From the IMG/VR virus record IMGVR_UViG_3300030090_003629, positions 1,666-65,665 of that record: a DNA stretch of 64,000 nt, one strand, 5' to 3'. The notes under the pieces are model-generated. The model was not told the DNA's origin, ran no database searches, and was given only the letters and a program-made list of their open reading frames with translations. The DNA comes from a virus (taxonomy: Duplodnaviria; Caudoviricetes). Below are positions 3,699-8,398 of the stretch, piece by piece. How positions within the stretch are numbered: position 1 is the stretch's first letter; the number at the start of each line of letters is the position of its first letter. A program made the translations under genes and the position numbers.

Positions 3699-4055
3699 TT
3701 AATAACCTCCTCCTGTTCCTTGCCCTCCACCTGTAGGTGTTATAACTACTGGCGCTTGTGTTGGTGGCGCTGGACTAGCAGCTGGAGTTGGACTTGGAGT
3801 TGGTTGTGTATTAATTGTTGGTGCAACTGGTTGTACAGGTGCACTAACTTCTGGTTCTACATCTACAAAAGGCTCTGCAACTGCTACTGTTACATTTGCT
3901 GTTGCGCCTGTATGAGTATATCCTCCCATATAACCTGTTATACCATTATAAACATGTGTATGGTATCCTTGTTGATTATTATCATTTGCCCATGTTAAGG
4001 CCTCTACTACAGAAGAATACAATGGTATTCCATCAATCGTTGTTAATATGCTCAT
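3699..4055 (-). CDS. hypothetical protein with Pro/Thr-rich tail
   Basis: N-terminal GYHTH..YMG domain; low-complexity C-terminus ending GGGY. Confidence 0.6.
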   Translation of the reverse strand: MSILTTIDGIPLYSSVVEALTWANDNNQQGYHTHVYNGITGYMGGYTHTGATANVTVAVAEPFVDVEPEVSAPVQPVAPTINTQPTPSPTPAASPAPPTQAPVVITPTGGGQGTGGGY

Positions 4056-6562
4056 TTTTTTATACTCTTTTTTTCTACAGTTCCATCGTTATATATAAAG
4101 AATAAAACTGTATTATATGTTATTTTATTTACAGGTCTACCTAATAAATCTGTAATTCCTATTAATTCTTTATTTATCATTCTTAATGGTATAGGTCCAA
4201 CCCAACCATCAACACAATGATTATATGTAGCTTGACATATTGTGTCCCATTCATTTTCACAACAATAATCATCTACTTCTAAAACCCATGCATAACAAGG
4301 GTCGTTTAACCAGTAAGGTATGCCTGGCCCTGTTATACATCCTGCATCATATAAACAAGACAAACTATCATTTATATTAGCTAGTTCATTATAGTTGTAC
4401 GCATTAAGATCCATACATCCTTGCACAATGCTAATACACGAACCATTGTCAGTATTAGCCAATGGATTATAGTTAAAAGCAGTAGAATCGGTACACCCAT
4501 ATACATAAGCGATACAACTAAAATCTTCAGTGTTTGCTTGTGGGTTGTAGTTAAGCATGCTAGGGTCAGTACAACCATAGATAAAAGGTATGCAAGTATT
4601 ATTATCAACATTGGCTAAAGGATTATAATTAAACATTGTGCTATCAGTGCAACCATATATAGGTAATATGCAGCTAAAGTCATCTGTATTACATGTATCA
4701 CAATAATTTAAAGCTATTGGATTAGTACAACCGTATATTACTGGTATACATGTTCCGTTGTCTGTATTAGCGACAGGATCATAATTATATGCAGAAGTAT
4801 CCATACACCCATAAACAAACGGTATACAAGATCCATTGTCTGTATTACAACTATCACAATAATTAAACATAGTTGCATCAGTACATCCATAAATGTAAGG
4901 CACACAGCTACTATCATCAACATTTGCGCTTGGCATAAAATTCCACATTGTACTGTCTGTACATCCATAAATAACACCTATACAACTACCATCATCTGTA
5001 TTTGCTAATGGATTATAATTTATAGCAATACTGCTCATACATCCATATACAATAGCTATACATGTATCTGGAGTATTAGCATTAGGATTGTAATTAAATG
5101 CTAATGGCTGCATACAGCCTGTTATAATTTGCACACAACCACCGTTATCAATATTTGCTGAAACATCATAATTAAACGCATTACTATCGGTACAACCCCA
5201 TATAGCTTGCGTTACACAACTACCGTCATTATAATCTGCTATAAAACCTTGTGTATAGTATTCTAAATAACTTGAGTTAGTACAACCTGGACTATAATAA
5301 CAACTACTATCTGTTGTGTTTGCTTCTTCATAATAATTTATAGCTGTAGAATCTAAACAACCATATACTTTTTCTTCACAAGTGTTACCACAATTTGTAA
5401 GCAAACCGTAAGGAAATAATGGCTGTATAAAAGGTGGCTGTATACTTATTAAAGTATCTCCTTCAGGGTTTATAAATGTAAAACCACATTCTATAGTCGT
5501 TAATGCTGCTTGTGAAGATATATGAAATATAAACTCCATAGGAGCAGGTGCAGATAAGTTTATTTGATATTCGTCATTAAAGCCACCTGTATGGTTAAAA
5601 TGATACACACTATCTGGATGGTTTAAAACTAAATGAGAACCTACCCAACCATTACCCATCAAGTCATGCAATACTAAAGTAAACTCACAATCTGCAATCA
5701 TATCCATAGTATTAGCATTTGGATCATAATTAAACATTGTAGAGTCTACACATCCATATATTTTTAAAGTTTGACAACTTCCATCGTCTACATCGGCAAA
5801 TGGATTCCATTCTACATAATCATCATCTGTACATCCATATATAGGTGGACATGAATCAGAAGCAAATACATGTGATGTGTCGTTACCAAAAGCAGGATTT
5901 GTACCATACACTAAGGTATCATTACATTGTTTTACAAAATAAGAACCATCTTGTCCCTGCCATAACGCACCATTTAATCCATCACCATAACTATCATATA
6001 TAGTAAATATTAACTCTCCCTTTGGTATACAAACAGGAACTACAATAGTAGCATAATCTGGATTACCTGCATAAGTAACTGACTGTGCGTATACCACACC
6101 ATTGCTGTCTTTTATATCCCAACTAGTTTCTCCCTGATACTGATCTAAGTTTATAATAACTTTAGCAGGAACACAAGGTGGTGGTTGAGGCATACACTGC
6201 GGTACTACTCTATTATGAATTAAGCCATTTGTAAATGTAGGATTTGGGTAGCTAACTATAGTATCTTCACACACAGAAACATAATAACTTCCTCCTGGTA
6301 TACCATCACCATACGAGTCATATATAACCCAAGATATATTTGTTATACTATCTGCTAATAATACTGTATCTGTATGGGTTGTATTTTGTAAATTATAATG
6401 CCCATATTGTACTTCTGCAATAAGCGGGCCTTGAAAACTGTCTGCAAACAACACCCATCTTGTTTCTGATGGATAGCTATCTGTAGTTAAATGTATAACA
6501 AAATCTTTTTGTCCAAAAACAAATAAAGGTAATAATAGTATTGTTAAAAATATATTTTTCAT
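4052..6562 (-). CDS. secreted Cys-repeat surface protein with T9SS-like C-terminal sorting domain
   Basis: Signal peptide MKNIFLTILLLPLFVFG|Q; two DSYGDG domains; 15 GC(T/M)D..A.NY...AN.DDGSC-type repeats; C-terminus ITDLLGR...FFIYNDGTVEKKSIKK. Confidence 0.75.
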   Translation of the reverse strand: MKNIFLTILLLPLFVFGQKDFVIHLTTDSYPSETRWVLFADSFQGPLIAEVQYGHYNLQNTTHTDTVLLADSITNISWVIYDSYGDGIPGGSYYVSVCEDTIVSYPNPTFTNGLIHNRVVPQCMPQPPPCVPAKVIINLDQYQGETSWDIKDSNGVVYAQSVTYAGNPDYATIVVPVCIPKGELIFTIYDSYGDGLNGALWQGQDGSYFVKQCNDTLVYGTNPAFGNDTSHVFASDSCPPIYGCTDDDYVEWNPFADVDDGSCQTLKIYGCVDSTMFNYDPNANTMDMIADCEFTLVLHDLMGNGWVGSHLVLNHPDSVYHFNHTGGFNDEYQINLSAPAPMEFIFHISSQAALTTIECGFTFINPEGDTLISIQPPFIQPLFPYGLLTNCGNTCEEKVYGCLDSTAINYYEEANTTDSSCYYSPGCTNSSYLEYYTQGFIADYNDGSCVTQAIWGCTDSNAFNYDVSANIDNGGCVQIITGCMQPLAFNYNPNANTPDTCIAIVYGCMSSIAINYNPLANTDDGSCIGVIYGCTDSTMWNFMPSANVDDSSCVPYIYGCTDATMFNYCDSCNTDNGSCIPFVYGCMDTSAYNYDPVANTDNGTCIPVIYGCTNPIALNYCDTCNTDDFSCILPIYGCTDSTMFNYNPLANVDNNTCIPFIYGCTDPSMLNYNPQANTEDFSCIAYVYGCTDSTAFNYNPLANTDNGSCISIVQGCMDLNAYNYNELANINDSLSCLYDAGCITGPGIPYWLNDPCYAWVLEVDDYCCENEWDTICQATYNHCVDGWVGPIPLRMINKELIGITDLLGRPVNKITYNTVLFFIYNDGTVEKKSIKK

Positions 6563-6563
6563 A

Positions 6564-6926
6564 TTAAAAATCACTCATCATTTGATTGTCTATTTCTTCT
6601 TGCACCTCTTCTTTAGTTGCCACCATTTTAAAACTTAGATCAGCCTGAAATCTTATTACCTCTTCATTATCTTTAAAAATTATAATAGTAGGTATTACAG
6701 CTATTTTATGTTTTGTAGCTAATTCTTTTTGACTTGCTATATCTATATAAGATATAGTTTTAACATCATTTAATTTATCTATCCATTCTACACCATTAGA
6801 CTTATTCCATTCAGCATTAAAGTATGCTATTTTAACTTGTCCAAAGGCTGAGTTAGAGAACAATATAAAAAGTATAATAGTAAAATACATAACATATAAT
6901 CTCCAATCAACATTTGTCTCTTCCAT
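6564..6926 (-). CDS. exported thioredoxin-fold protein lacking CxxC
   Basis: Signal/TM segment ending AFG|Q; FNAEWNKSN where WCxxC is expected; IPTIIIFKD cis-Pro loop; no Cys in the protein. Confidence 0.7.
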   Translation of the reverse strand: MEETNVDWRLYVMYFTIILFILFSNSAFGQVKIAYFNAEWNKSNGVEWIDKLNDVKTISYIDIASQKELATKHKIAVIPTIIIFKDNEEVIRFQADLSFKMVATKEEVQEEIDNQMMSDF

Positions 6927-7207: not shown

Positions 7208-7211
7208 TTTA

Positions 7212-7295
7212 TTATTTTTTAGAACAATAACAATTGTTTAAACAAATTTTACCAAAAGTTATAGCTTTTACAAATTTACAAATTATTTCTTTCAT
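7212..7295 (-). CDS. 27-aa Cys-rich micropeptide (not in ORF track)
   Basis: MKEIICKFVKAITFGKICLNNCYCSKK*; exactly fills the gap between neighbours, with an A-rich pre-ATG context. Confidence 0.55.
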   Translation of the reverse strand: MKEIICKFVKAITFGKICLNNCYCSKK

Positions 7296-7297
7296 TT

Positions 7298-8398
7298 TTA
7301 AAATATTATATAATTAACACCAAATTTAAAATCATACCACTCTCTGTTCCAATACTTATTGTATTTACCCTCTAAAAAATACCCTAAGCTTTTGTCTGCT
7401 TTTATACCATATATTAGACCAAAAGTATAATCATACCATTGATTATCTTCTATATAGTTATGATAAGTAAACTCACTACCATCATTATAATGCCAAGGTA
7501 ATAAATTACCCCATGCATGTAACCATGTTTGTTTACTATATTTATAATAATCAAAACCTATAACTATAGAATGTTGTATAAGTTTTTCTAATTCATTTCT
7601 TTTTTTATTTGTATAATCAGATATAACTTTAGGTATTACAACTTCTTTCCATACATCAGAACTTGTTGCAACTATGGCACCGCTAGGATCTTTATACTCA
7701 CTATTTGCTACATCTATGGTATACCCTTCTTGTATAGCTAAGTAAGTGTAATGTAAATTCCCATTATCCAAGATCCATTCTTCTAGCGGATTATATCCAT
7801 ATGGTTCTGCTAGTCTGTGTACGGCACCAATACTAAATGCTAAATCTGCATTTTTTTTAAATCTATATCTTTCTGATAGCTCAAAATATTCTACGTCTGC
7901 AAATCCATCTTTTAAATATTCTACTTTTGCAGCAAAATGATTTACACAAAATGGACCTTCACAATCGTCATCAGAACTATATCTTATAAAATGATGATGA
8001 TCTATATAATCTAAACCCTGTTGTCTAGCGTAGTCAATTTCAAACAAATACTCAAATCCTTGTACTTTCCCTACTGTAGCAGCATCTGTATAATTAGACT
8101 CTGTACCATCATAAAAAGTATTTGCTTTATTTTCATAACCAAACCTTGCTATCTTTCTTATACCAACTGTTAATGAATAATCATAGGGTGTTGTAATTAT
8201 TTGTTCTTGTAGTTGTCCTTGTGTTATAGAAAAAACTTTGGCATCTGACACTGATGTTCCTCCGTTTACAGCAGCGTATATTGTAGAAAATTTTAATTGT
8301 TTTTTTATTTTTTCTTCTATATTTATTTGTGCACAACATTTTTTCTGTGTGCCGCATGATGCTAATATAAATAATAATATAATAATATAGTTTTTCAT
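7298..8398 (-). CDS. putative outer-membrane beta-barrel protein
   Basis: Signal peptide (LASC lipobox or CCA|Q); Tyr/Phe/Trp-rich alternating strands; terminal FKFGVNYIIF Bam-type signature. Confidence 0.65.
   Translation of the reverse strand: MKNYIIILLFILASCGTQKKCCAQINIEEKIKKQLKFSTIYAAVNGGTSVSDAKVFSITQGQLQEQIITTPYDYSLTVGIRKIARFGYENKANTFYDGTESNYTDAATVGKVQGFEYLFEIDYARQQGLDYIDHHHFIRYSSDDDCEGPFCVNHFAAKVEYLKDGFADVEYFELSERYRFKKNADLAFSIGAVHRLAEPYGYNPLEEWILDNGNLHYTYLAIQEGYTIDVANSEYKDPSGAIVATSSDVWKEVVIPKVISDYTNKKRNELEKLIQHSIVIGFDYYKYSKQTWLHAWGNLLPWHYNDGSEFTYHNYIEDNQWYDYTFGLIYGIKADKSLGYFLEGKYNKYWNREWYDFKFGVNYIIF

Follow-up and report, generated by a model that had tools for sequence, protein, structure and literature searches.

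A putative type IX secretion cargo and an outer-membrane barrel trio in the lysis region of a crAss-related flavobacterial phage

Gene content of the late region

The analyzed window, a 64,000-nt stretch of IMG/VR record IMGVR_UViG_3300030090_003629, belongs to a 65.7-kb crAss-related phage with a marine Flavobacteriales host, and the region described here is part of its late operon. TerL, the portal and the major capsid protein were identified in the genome. The nearest relatives of TerL are 197 phage records, whose organism names begin with Flavobacterium (97), uncultured (43), Bacteroides (30), Cellulophaga (6) and others; identity to all relatives is below 60%, and it is 28–30% among the matches listed.

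Five ORFs follow one another on the minus strand at spacings of −11 to +5 nt. They encode an exported 366-aa outer-membrane β-barrel ending in FGVNYIIF (7298..8398), a Cys-rich peptide of 27 aa with four cysteines (7212..7295), a 93-aa membrane-anchored protein without cysteine (6926..7207), an exported 120-aa thioredoxin-fold protein, likewise Cys-free (6564..6926), and an exported repeat protein of 836 or 840 aa (4052..6574), whose final 40 residues form a short tag (4055..4174). These positions and features agree with a first-pass annotation of the same DNA. The 27-aa ORF is an optional member of the region and represents a real small family, with members in 22 of 80 related loci, where their position varies. 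Between the repeat-protein gene and the holin sits a 118-aa protein with a Pro-rich tail (3699..4055, minus strand), which gave no family match in profile searches and was found by tblastn in 19 of 81 loci. The holin (3303..3689; phrog_3427 holin, E 3.1e-31; PF11351 GTA_holin_3TM, E 1.8e-4) and a DUF5675 protein, the candidate endolysin (1720..2187; PF18925, E 2.5e-27), lie on the same strand. In a preprint, DUF5675 is one of the candidate lysins and is placed, on structural grounds, with C82-like peptidases (10.64898/2026.04.11.717860).

Export signals were judged by a crude rule of our own, a stretch of 10 or more hydrophobic residues plus an [AGS]-Q site. The stretch and the site are present, respectively, in 65/80 and 74/80 orthologs of the barrel, 60/70 and 67/70 of the thioredoxin-fold protein, and 59/63 and 63/63 of the repeat protein. 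The genes come after tail-fibre-like genes on the same strand, and the two-Cys repeats are shared with a "virion structural protein" of Synechococcus phage S-CAM3 (9% query coverage), a setting that would suit tail fibres, decoration proteins or other ordinary virion components. Virions are assembled in the cytoplasm, however, and the conserved export signals on three of the proteins, the membrane-barrel model of one of them and the secreted cellular relatives of the repeat protein make such a role extremely improbable; the earlier view of the products as exported envelope proteins rather than virion parts is upheld.

The repeat protein and its C-terminal tag

Counted from a GTG start, the repeat protein is 840 aa long; with the ATG at 6562 as start, the length is 836 aa. 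It contains 49 cysteines and, with position 475 left out, 15 GC.[DNQS] repeat seeds, matching the fifteen Cys repeats counted previously. Three N-terminal β-sandwich domains are followed by the 15 two-Cys repeats, a Cys-rich helical domain and the short C-terminal tag (AF2 pLDDT 46.5 overall, ~70–90 for the N-terminal domains). Among the best 120 of its 3255 homolog clusters, 107 carry PF18962, some of them on contigs of 143–301 kb; judged by sequence, the family is one of cellular T9SS cargo, of which the phage carries a copy.

A T9SS C-terminal domain (CTD) had been proposed for this protein from the first. The window's own copy matches neither PF18962 nor TIGR04183, even at E ≤ 10, but the comparison of orthologs supports a signal of a shorter kind. 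Tail length is bimodal across the family (72 short and 111 long among 183). At a cut-off of 27 bits, PF18962 was passed at the same position by all four long-tailed orthologs (33.7, 43.4, 32.4 and 43.9 bits) and by none of the four short-tailed orthologs scanned. Exactly one tagged ORF was found in 63 of 80 loci (59 short, 4 long), and no locus has two. The large protein thus appears to carry a short T9SS-type C-terminal signal, for which orthologs swap in the canonical PF18962 CTD; most copies of the cargo carry the short tag, and its gene is placed inside the lysis cassette.

Within the phage genome the tag occurs only once, on the repeat protein. In cellular genomes it is widespread: the tag profile matches 135 of 401 Flavobacteriales genomes, with E-values of 1e-15 to 1e-21 for many of them. 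An ORF ending in the tag was present in all 12 cellular loci examined, and 8 of the 13 tag-ending ORFs at these loci begin, by eye, with a signal-like N-terminus. The passenger domains of tagged cellular proteins include LRR, cupredoxin, and amidase plus CUB, kinds usual in T9SS cargo, and both SprA and PorV were found in 5/5 genomes. On this profile evidence, the ~40-aa tail is a host-type tag, borne by dozens of exported proteins in genomes of the host lineage.

AF2 modeling of the tag gives three strands (800–804, 818–824 and 829–834; pLDDT 71–78). Profile comparison at first gave a weak result, with tails from phages alone (P 0.015; score reached by 9/150 shuffles); an hhalign comparison of 19 tags with 19 long CTDs from one genome scored 17.8 (P 0.0019 over 41 columns), a value matched by 1 of 200 column shuffles. 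The tag aligns with the C-terminal two-thirds of the long CTDs. A different reading would make the tail a cell-surface binding domain, or some other sorting signal found at C-termini, with no connection to T9SS. Pfam and NCBIfam, T9SS models included, offer nothing that matches the tag, either in the phage protein or in any of the 10 cellular proteins scanned; the tag stands beside 36–62 canonical CTDs per genome without replacing them; and its sequence is much more uniform than theirs. We nevertheless consider this reading quite unlikely, given that PF18962 takes the tag's position in orthologs, that the tag aligns with long CTDs, and that the passengers are those typical of T9SS cargo. The length and three-strand model of the tag also fit the cleaved short CTDs of P. 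intermedia (PMC11969387).

The P. intermedia domains are described as 40–55 aa long, forming a single sheet of three strands equivalent to strands 3, 6 and 7 of long CTDs, and that report calls P. intermedia the sole species seen with short CTDs (PMC11969387). The tag resembles them in its size range (~40–55 aa), its location at the extreme C-terminus of Sec-exported proteins and its predicted three-stranded sheet. Short and long forms also coexist in similar numbers, with 48 and 32 in P. intermedia (PMC11969387) and 52 tag matches against 59 PF18962 matches in one 1.9-Mb genome, G041. The lineage differs, however, being marine Flavobacteriales and a phage, as does the more uniform consensus, in which the Gly of the GxY motif is apparently replaced (by eye). 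Cleavage and glycosylation are reported for the P. intermedia CTDs (PMC11969387).

The cargo quite probably uses the T9SS, which would lead to its display on the cell surface. The initial statement that no comparable phage system had been described needs qualifying, as phage-encoded T9SS cargo has been published for 'Cryophage' (PMC7468147) and crAss-BACON cluster 2 (PMC6949934). Those cases likewise involve Bacteroidota phages, T9SS sorting domains and presumed use of the host system, but their domains are of the canonical type A and are found on enzymes or BACON proteins, whereas here the carrier is a host-family repeat protein.

The barrel, its partners and the lysis genes

As the first-pass annotation had anticipated, the 366-aa protein is modeled by AF2 as an outer-membrane β-barrel (pLDDT 73.3, pTM 0.68), with 12–14 strands and a helical insert at approximately residues 198–272. 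Compared by VIA, it scores highest against KdgM (Z 13.5; rmsd 3.9, 168 aligned), Tsx (Z 13.4) and NanC (Z 13.1), and Foldseek returned 56 matches at E ≤ 0.001, nearly all outer-membrane barrels among the matches listed. The family comprises 3703 homolog clusters and is found in 60–70-kb phages; a Pfam scan of 31 members assigned no family to any, and PF24653 (Phage_OMP) did not match at E ≤ 10. The 93-aa protein has an N-terminal hydrophobic segment as a putative anchor, a Pro-rich linker and a helical acidic/basic C-terminal tail. It has no Pfam match, matches phrog_1009 of unknown function at E 0.0017, and has orthologs in 73 of 81 loci. The thioredoxin fold without cysteine, also read correctly from the start, is identified by PF00085 (E 4.2e-5; 23.9 bits, cut-off 23.5) and by a PDB search in which all 44 sequences at E ≤ 1 have this fold, mostly thioredoxins and PDI-type proteins (best E 5.7e-5). 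Its CxxC site is N..N in 30/30 orthologs, the C-terminal MSDF is invariant, and its profile was found in 5 of 401 Flavobacteriales genomes.

The five genes had been presented as one surface-display cassette, with the barrel as anchor or shuttle of the cargo (a part that PorV or PorP/SprF play for T9SS cargo) and the thioredoxin fold as its periplasmic chaperone. Within the window's group, 66 of 80 loci do contain all four main genes, invariably near one another, and a Cys-less thioredoxin fold beside a 49-Cys protein invites the chaperone reading. In F. johnsoniae, moreover, linkage of type B cargo genes to those of cognate PorP/SprF shuttle barrels is frequent (PMC12618676), and the outer-membrane barrel gene here likewise adjoins a T9SS cargo gene. 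The predicted co-occurrence holds within the group, but it breaks down beyond it. Sixty-three of 65 distant phage loci have the barrel, 60 have the TM protein and 58 the thioredoxin fold; a short-tagged ORF occurs in none of them and a long-CTD ORF in one, and the trio of barrel, TM and thioredoxin-fold genes is kept in 57 of 63. These locus counts are not independent events, because many loci share descent. The barrel also accompanies both tail types of the cargo, persists in cargo-less phages, and shows no relation to host PorV (hhalign P 0.046 over 28 columns) or PorP/SprF (P 0.12 over 23 columns); its closest folds are 12-stranded and porin-like (VIA Z 13), against Z 7.0 for a FadL-type barrel. 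Of 401 host-order genomes, 2 contain relatives of the barrel and 135 contain the tag, and the barrel is therefore not the tag's general handler. A single cassette is accordingly improbable, and the shuttle and chaperone roles lose their footing; the trio is very probably independent of the cargo.

In 57/57 distant loci the TM gene immediately precedes the thioredoxin-fold gene; 19 of these loci have the barrel gene no more than 100 nt from the pair, 37 have it within 2.5 kb, and one has it at a greater distance. Lysis genes were recognized with three models (holin, Peptidase_M15_3 and DUF5675), which gave a match in 46 of 63 distant loci and none in the other 17; in 46/46 the lysis gene is at most 1.5 kb from the trio. 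DUF5675 adjoins the barrel gene in 31 distant loci, and loci L172 and L173 have the order TM, thioredoxin fold, barrel, Peptidase_M15_3 (E 1.6e-19 and 4.3e-16) and holin (GTA_holin_3TM at E 2.1e-5 in L172). In the window's group, the 32 of 66 loci that hold a holin have it 6–3500 nt past the module.

Two-component spanins such as lambda Rz/Rz1 consist of an N-terminally anchored inner-membrane protein with a helical periplasmic part and an outer-membrane partner, encoded near holin and endolysin. The trio is similar in pairing an anchored helical protein, whose topology resembles that of an i-spanin, with an outer-membrane partner beside these genes. It differs in that this partner is a 366-aa β-barrel rather than a small lipoprotein, and in having a third, periplasmic thioredoxin-fold member; no sequence relation between the trio and spanins was found. 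In the 93-aa protein, a short stretch of ~55 residues makes up the periplasmic part. The pattern search revealed no small o-spanin-like lipoprotein, because the barrel is the sole ORF with a credible lipobox on the coding strand, and this lipobox is not conserved (23 of 80 orthologs). Nor can a β-barrel be taken to promote membrane fusion in the way of an o-spanin lipoprotein. From synteny, we tentatively assign the trio to lysis, with slightly less than even confidence, and its part there may be a spanin-like one at the outer-membrane step.

Phage accessory genes also gather between tail and lysis genes, and the trio could instead be an envelope-remodelling or superinfection-exclusion set, with a barrel that masks or disturbs a receptor, as lambda Lom reportedly does, and a position near the lysis genes that is due to this gathering alone. 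The barrel is unusually conserved (58–100% identity over 80 loci), and its large insert could face outward. Phage outer-membrane barrels are also common, with 1,603 reported in 1,303 huge phages in a preprint that proposes receptor masking and cites lambda Lom binding LamB (10.64898/2026.10.24.761521). Like Lom, these huge-phage proteins and PF24653, the barrel is a phage-made signal-peptide protein of the host outer membrane, but here it has two other envelope proteins as fixed partners, next to lysis genes. Exclusion leaves unexplained both these constant companions (57/57 adjacent pairs) and the abutment of the trio on endolysin and holin across several different gene orders, and we regard it as unlikely.

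Two proposed functional units

The initial interpretation is thus partly supported, with two units in place of one cassette: a captured host cargo and a lysis-linked trio. As a whole, we consider this explanation evenly balanced between right and wrong. The cargo would be a host surface protein captured by the phage, and its gene a moron inserted specifically in this phage group. Sec would bring the 836-aa repeat protein into the periplasm, and the host type IX secretion system would carry it onward to the cell surface, recognizing its last ~40 residues as a three-stranded short CTD. The trio would be an older, independent set, in which the 93-aa coiled coil, the 120-aa redox-dead thioredoxin fold and the 366-aa barrel together span the inner membrane, periplasm and outer membrane and belong to the lysis cassette. 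Its action would follow that of holin and endolysin and would disrupt the outer membrane, making the trio a functional analogue of spanins with a barrel as anchor. If this is true, the trio may represent a new way of breaking the outer membrane.

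Gene layout and inferred host

Five minus-strand ORFs of 366, 27, 93, 120 and 840 aa were recovered at the positions named beforehand, with a spacing of -11 to +5 nt, which confirmed the tightly coupled arrangement described in the first-pass annotation. They encode a putative barrel (7298-8398), a 27-aa peptide, a transmembrane (TM) protein (6926-7207), a thioredoxin-fold protein (Trx, 6564-6926) and a Cys-repeat cargo protein (4052-6574), the last comprising 840 aa, or 836 aa when counted from the ATG at 6562. The ORFs are situated downstream of tail-fibre-like genes, where a 243-aa neighbour matches Laminin_G_3 (E 6.6e-6), and upstream of a holin (phrog_3427, E 3.1e-31) and a DUF5675 gene. 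Between the cargo gene and the holin lies a 118-aa protein without a family match (3699-4055), whose N-terminal part looks folded and whose long tail is rich in Pro, Thr and Ala. Elsewhere in the window, a 687-aa protein with an N-terminal Phage_lysozyme2 (tail lysozyme) domain (23985-26048, E 9.3e-13) is encoded in a stretch of giant ORFs (3947 and 2399 aa).

At 65,665 bases, the viral genome on record has a completeness rating of 97%, and terminase, portal and major capsid protein are all present. The nearest relatives of the terminase were 197 phage records, all below 60% identity and, among the matches listed, at 28-30%; by first word of the organism name they comprise Flavobacterium (97), uncultured (43), Bacteroides (30), Cellulophaga (6) and others. 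Because of these terminase relatives, we infer that the host is a member of Bacteroidota. Megablast of the region returned no match, and none of the family models tried on the five proteins matched the barrel, the 27-aa peptide or the putative type IX secretion system (T9SS) tail. A scan for promoters and terminators told us little (64 promoter-like sites found, 55.6 expected). Six DNA sequencing runs from two studies contain 0.90-0.96 of the sampled words, and no RNA run was found among the runs containing them.

The cargo protein and its short C-terminal tag

The cargo had been proposed to carry a T9SS C-terminal domain (CTD) of the TIGR04183/PF18962 type, an assignment that did not survive the profile searches: the whole protein, its last 100 aa and its last 182 aa gave no match to either model at E <= 10, and a six-frame search of the genome for T9SS CTD models at the same threshold gave nothing. 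Among the orthologs, tail length is bimodal, with 72 short and 111 long tails in 183 sequences. All four long-tailed orthologs scanned (L040, L050, L064 and L066) pass the PF18962 cut-off of 27 bits, at 33.7, 43.4, 32.4 and 43.9 bits, with the domain placed directly after the same Cys-rich domain; four short-tailed orthologs gave no match in the same scan. PF18962 is also carried by 107 of the best 120 of 3255 cargo homolog clusters, several of them on 143-301-kb contigs and with the same architecture from signal peptide through Cys-rich domain, and for these reasons the phage gene is taken to have been copied from a cellular family of T9SS cargo.

In the 72 short-tailed sequences, 40-59 aa follow the last Cys motif. 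The last 40 aa of the cargo, its extreme C-terminus, constitute the tag, for which AlphaFold2 placed strands at residues 800-804, 818-824 and 829-834 with pLDDT 71-78, within a whole-protein model that is poor (pLDDT 46.5). The tag has the length and the predicted fold, 40-55 aa in a single three-stranded beta-sheet, of the short CTD class. According to the accessible portion of PMC11969387, P. intermedia possesses 48 short CTDs of 40-55 aa that are cleaved and glycosylated, each a single sheet whose three strands correspond to strands 3, 6 and 7 of the long form, and is called the only species with known short CTDs. The tag resembles them, as they are described there, in length, in its three strands and in its alignment to long CTDs. 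When 19 tags were compared by hhalign with 19 diverse long CTDs of G041, a 1.9-Mb genome of the host order, the score was 17.8 (P 0.0019, 41 columns), a value reached by 1 of 200 column shuffles, and the whole tag was placed on long-CTD positions 19-75. This supports homology of the tag with the long-CTD segment in which PMC11969387 names motifs B, D and E. The phage tails aligned only weakly with the long CTDs of their own protein family (P 0.015; 9 of 150 shuffles reached the score).

To survey cellular genomes, a 43-position profile built solely from phage tails was employed on the order around a Flavobacteriales MAG. It found matches in 135 of 401 genomes, more than 1,500 in total and mostly in genomes of 0.8-2.3 Mb. 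A tag-terminated ORF was present in 12/12 loci examined, with passenger domains that include LRR, cupredoxin and amidase_2 plus CUB, and in 10/10 cellular proteins the tag was covered by no Pfam or NCBIfam model. Since G041 yields 52 matches to the tag and 59 to PF18962, the short tag and the PF18962 CTD coexist in one genome. An example of the tag lies at G041:C2:636831-636941, with further loci in L095-L106 and L141-L160; the genomes sampled were G001-G400. The tag terminates dozens of exported proteins in each genome that has it and, judged from sequence, would be a short-CTD family not yet described beyond Prevotella.

At the other end of the cargo, signal-like N-termini were seen in 59 of 63 orthologs by our own crude rule. 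Our own pattern placed Gln at +1 of the predicted signal-peptide cleavage site in 63/63 cargo and 67/70 Trx orthologs, which fits the 'Q-rule' of Bacteroidota. The candidate host genomes encode SprA, PorV and PorP/SprF in 5/5 cases each, so that an extreme C-terminal tag, a Sec signal and a T9SS-bearing host are found together; in four of the five, NF033710 (PorV) also gave weak second and third matches. From the comparisons it is well supported that the cargo would be exported by Sec and then by the T9SS through its short CTD, probably by way of PorV, by analogy with the model for P. intermedia. A Foldseek search with the full repeat-protein model returned only generic multi-sandwich matches (TM ~0.07), which would indicate beta-sandwich domains at most. 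The reading of these proteins as virion components was rejected; if displayed, the cargo could serve in adhesion, as a decoy or in receptor masking.

The barrel, TM protein and Trx as a unit

The barrel belongs to a large family, with 3703 homolog clusters in metagenomes and 115 IMG/VR relatives. It had no tblastn match at E <= 1e-3 in 50,697 deposited phage records and no Pfam or NCBIfam match, and no Pfam family was found on any of 31 members. An AlphaFold2 model from a 31-row alignment (pLDDT 73.3, pTM 0.68) contains about 14 strands and a helical insert. The top VIA-align matches were 12-stranded outer-membrane barrels, led by KdgM (Z 13.5, rmsd 3.9, 168 aligned) and including Tsx (13.4), NanC (13.1), EstA (13.1) and NalP (12.2), with a FadL homologue at Z 7.0; Foldseek gave 56 matches at E <= 0.001, and among the matches listed nearly all are outer-membrane barrels. 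The protein combines a signal peptide, a closed antiparallel barrel and an aromatic C-terminal residue (F in most alignment rows; R, K or Y in others), and the earlier prediction of an outer-membrane barrel was borne out. The signal peptide is conserved among orthologs. The reading of the barrel as a lipoprotein was rejected, as the lipobox Cys is not conserved (lipobox in 23/80). Many orthologs start with an unusual leader (the first 24 residues in the window protein), in which a lipobox Cys precedes a basic stretch, a pair of neighbouring Cys and A/S-Q; the same leader occurs on one cargo ortholog (L016:7224-10013) and may be a swappable signal variant. Atlas suggested PF24653 (Phage_OMP) for the barrel at 0.92, and the PF24653 model matched nowhere in the phage genome at E <= 10.

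The TM protein has one hydrophobic segment, a Pro-rich linker and a charged helix, read from sequence and conserved in the orthologs printed; Atlas returned only unnamed viral clusters for it. Trx has a fold-level thioredoxin match and lacks the CxxC of PF00085: it contains no Cys, and the active site reads N..N in 30/30 orthologs. Across 30 orthologs its C-terminal half hardly varies, down to an invariant terminal MSDF, and this suggests a docking surface.

All four main genes occur together in 66 of 80 loci of the window's group, in agreement with the co-occurrence predicted for related phages. The gene orders are barrel-TM-Trx-cargo (43), TM-Trx-cargo-barrel (21) and cargo-barrel-TM-Trx (2), and 63 loci each carry a single tagged ORF. 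In 65 distant loci, from phages whose barrel relatives share ~30-35% identity, the barrel was found in 63, the TM protein in 60 and Trx in 58, with a short tag in 0 and a long CTD in 1; these locus counts are non-independent, many loci being kin by descent. The TM gene is next to the Trx gene in 57/57 distant loci; the distance from this pair to the barrel gene is at most 100 nt in 19, at most 2.5 kb in 37 and larger in 1. Gene content and order argue that the barrel, the TM protein and Trx form a unit apart from the cargo. In the second phage group, L177 encodes an exported 259-aa Cys-bearing protein of no family (8524-9300) between the barrel gene and the TM-Trx pair, roughly in the place of the repeat cargo in the window's group; similar ORFs of ~200-310 aa occur in L174-L216.

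The first-pass annotation had treated all five genes as a single T9SS surface-display cassette, with the barrel as anchor or shuttle and the thioredoxin fold as chaperone. The modelled barrel and the shared locus agree with it, and it is weakened by the trios that lack a cargo in distant phages and by the lack of any sequence or profile relation of the barrel to PorV (NF033710) or PorP/SprF (PF11751), so that the barrel was rejected as a member of either family: no family match was found, and hhalign gave P 0.046 against 5 host PorV sequences and P 0.12 against 14 host PorP/SprF sequences with signal peptides removed. Fold-level kinship to either family is possible. A predicted complex of the barrel with the last 120 aa of the cargo scored 0.00 in a run made without controls, and counts neither for nor against their contact.

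In the 401 host-order genomes, relatives of the barrel (2/401) and of Trx (5/401) are rare, and the strongest matches lie on a phage-like contig within one bin. A 404-aa distant barrel relative (~27% identity) is located among housekeeping genes on a chromosomal contig (L092, G064:C35, 9379-10593), with two exported Cys-rich proteins a few kb away. Searches of viral and metagenome contigs did not recover P0129, a distant relative of the barrel. The barrel was not found in five genomes reached via repeat-protein loci; these loci contain only ~74-aa repeat matches and are of little use for judging cellular context.

Lysis linkage and significance

The trio is repeatedly found beside lysis genes. 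In L172 and L173 the order is TM, Trx, barrel, Peptidase_M15_3 (E 1.6e-19 and 4.3e-16) and holin, and in L226 Peptidase_M15_3 lies two genes past the trio. A DUF5675 gene is present in 31 loci and, in those printed, immediately precedes the barrel gene; the accessible part of a preprint (10.64898/2026.04.11.717860) treats DUF5675 as a candidate lysin, grouped with C82-like peptidases. A lysis gene recognised by our models was detected in 46 of 63 loci, within 1.5 kb of the trio in 46/46. The trio thus has the location expected of spanins, in the lysis cassette beside holin and endolysin. A lipobox pattern search of the coding strand turned up no small lipoprotein ORF that could be an o-spanin, the sole lipobox ORF there being the 366-aa barrel. 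To our knowledge, phages of the phylum to which Flavobacteriales belong have no well-described spanins. In the accessible text of a Crassvirales review, spanins receive only a general mention.

Considering the predicted anchors in both membranes, the putative periplasmic link, the adjacency to holin and endolysin and the lack of a small o-spanin candidate in the pattern search, we hypothesize that the trio acts in lysis at the outer membrane, with an anchor in each membrane and Trx as the periplasmic link; based on synteny and topology only, this role has nearly an even chance of being correct. The strongest competing explanation is that the trio remodels the envelope or excludes superinfection, as a recent preprint, in its accessible part, proposes for phage barrels (10.64898/2026.10.24.761521). 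The broader proposal is put forward more tentatively: the trio, with the TM protein as a membrane-anchored coiled coil, Trx as a redox-dead periplasmic member and the barrel, would be a new three-part, barrel-anchored device for the outer-membrane step of lysis in Flavobacteriales phages, and the short-CTD cargo, lodged within this cassette, would reshape the cell surface shortly before lysis. Supplements and subscription journals aside, the literature searched contained no paper describing the trio and none on a short CTD in marine Flavobacteria. The earlier statement that no phage system like this one had been described needs narrowing for phage-borne T9SS cargo, which the accessible parts of PMC7468147 and PMC6949934 already report.

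Short T9SS signals, so far reported for one oral species only in the accessible portion of PMC11969387, are by sequence evidence more widespread than reported: in one third of the marine Flavobacteriales genomes sampled, a tag of this kind is predicted on ~50 proteins each. With no Pfam or NCBIfam model recognising the tag, predicted secretomes of abundant ocean bacteria would lack about half of the tagged proteins. A phage protein with the exact tag of the host lineage, whose orthologs switch between short and long signals, provides a natural experiment on signal interchangeability, and the tag offers a new means of linking uncultured phages to hosts. The trio, a conserved set beside holin and endolysin that would span all three envelope layers, is a concrete and testable candidate for how phages of Bacteroidota may breach the outer membrane.
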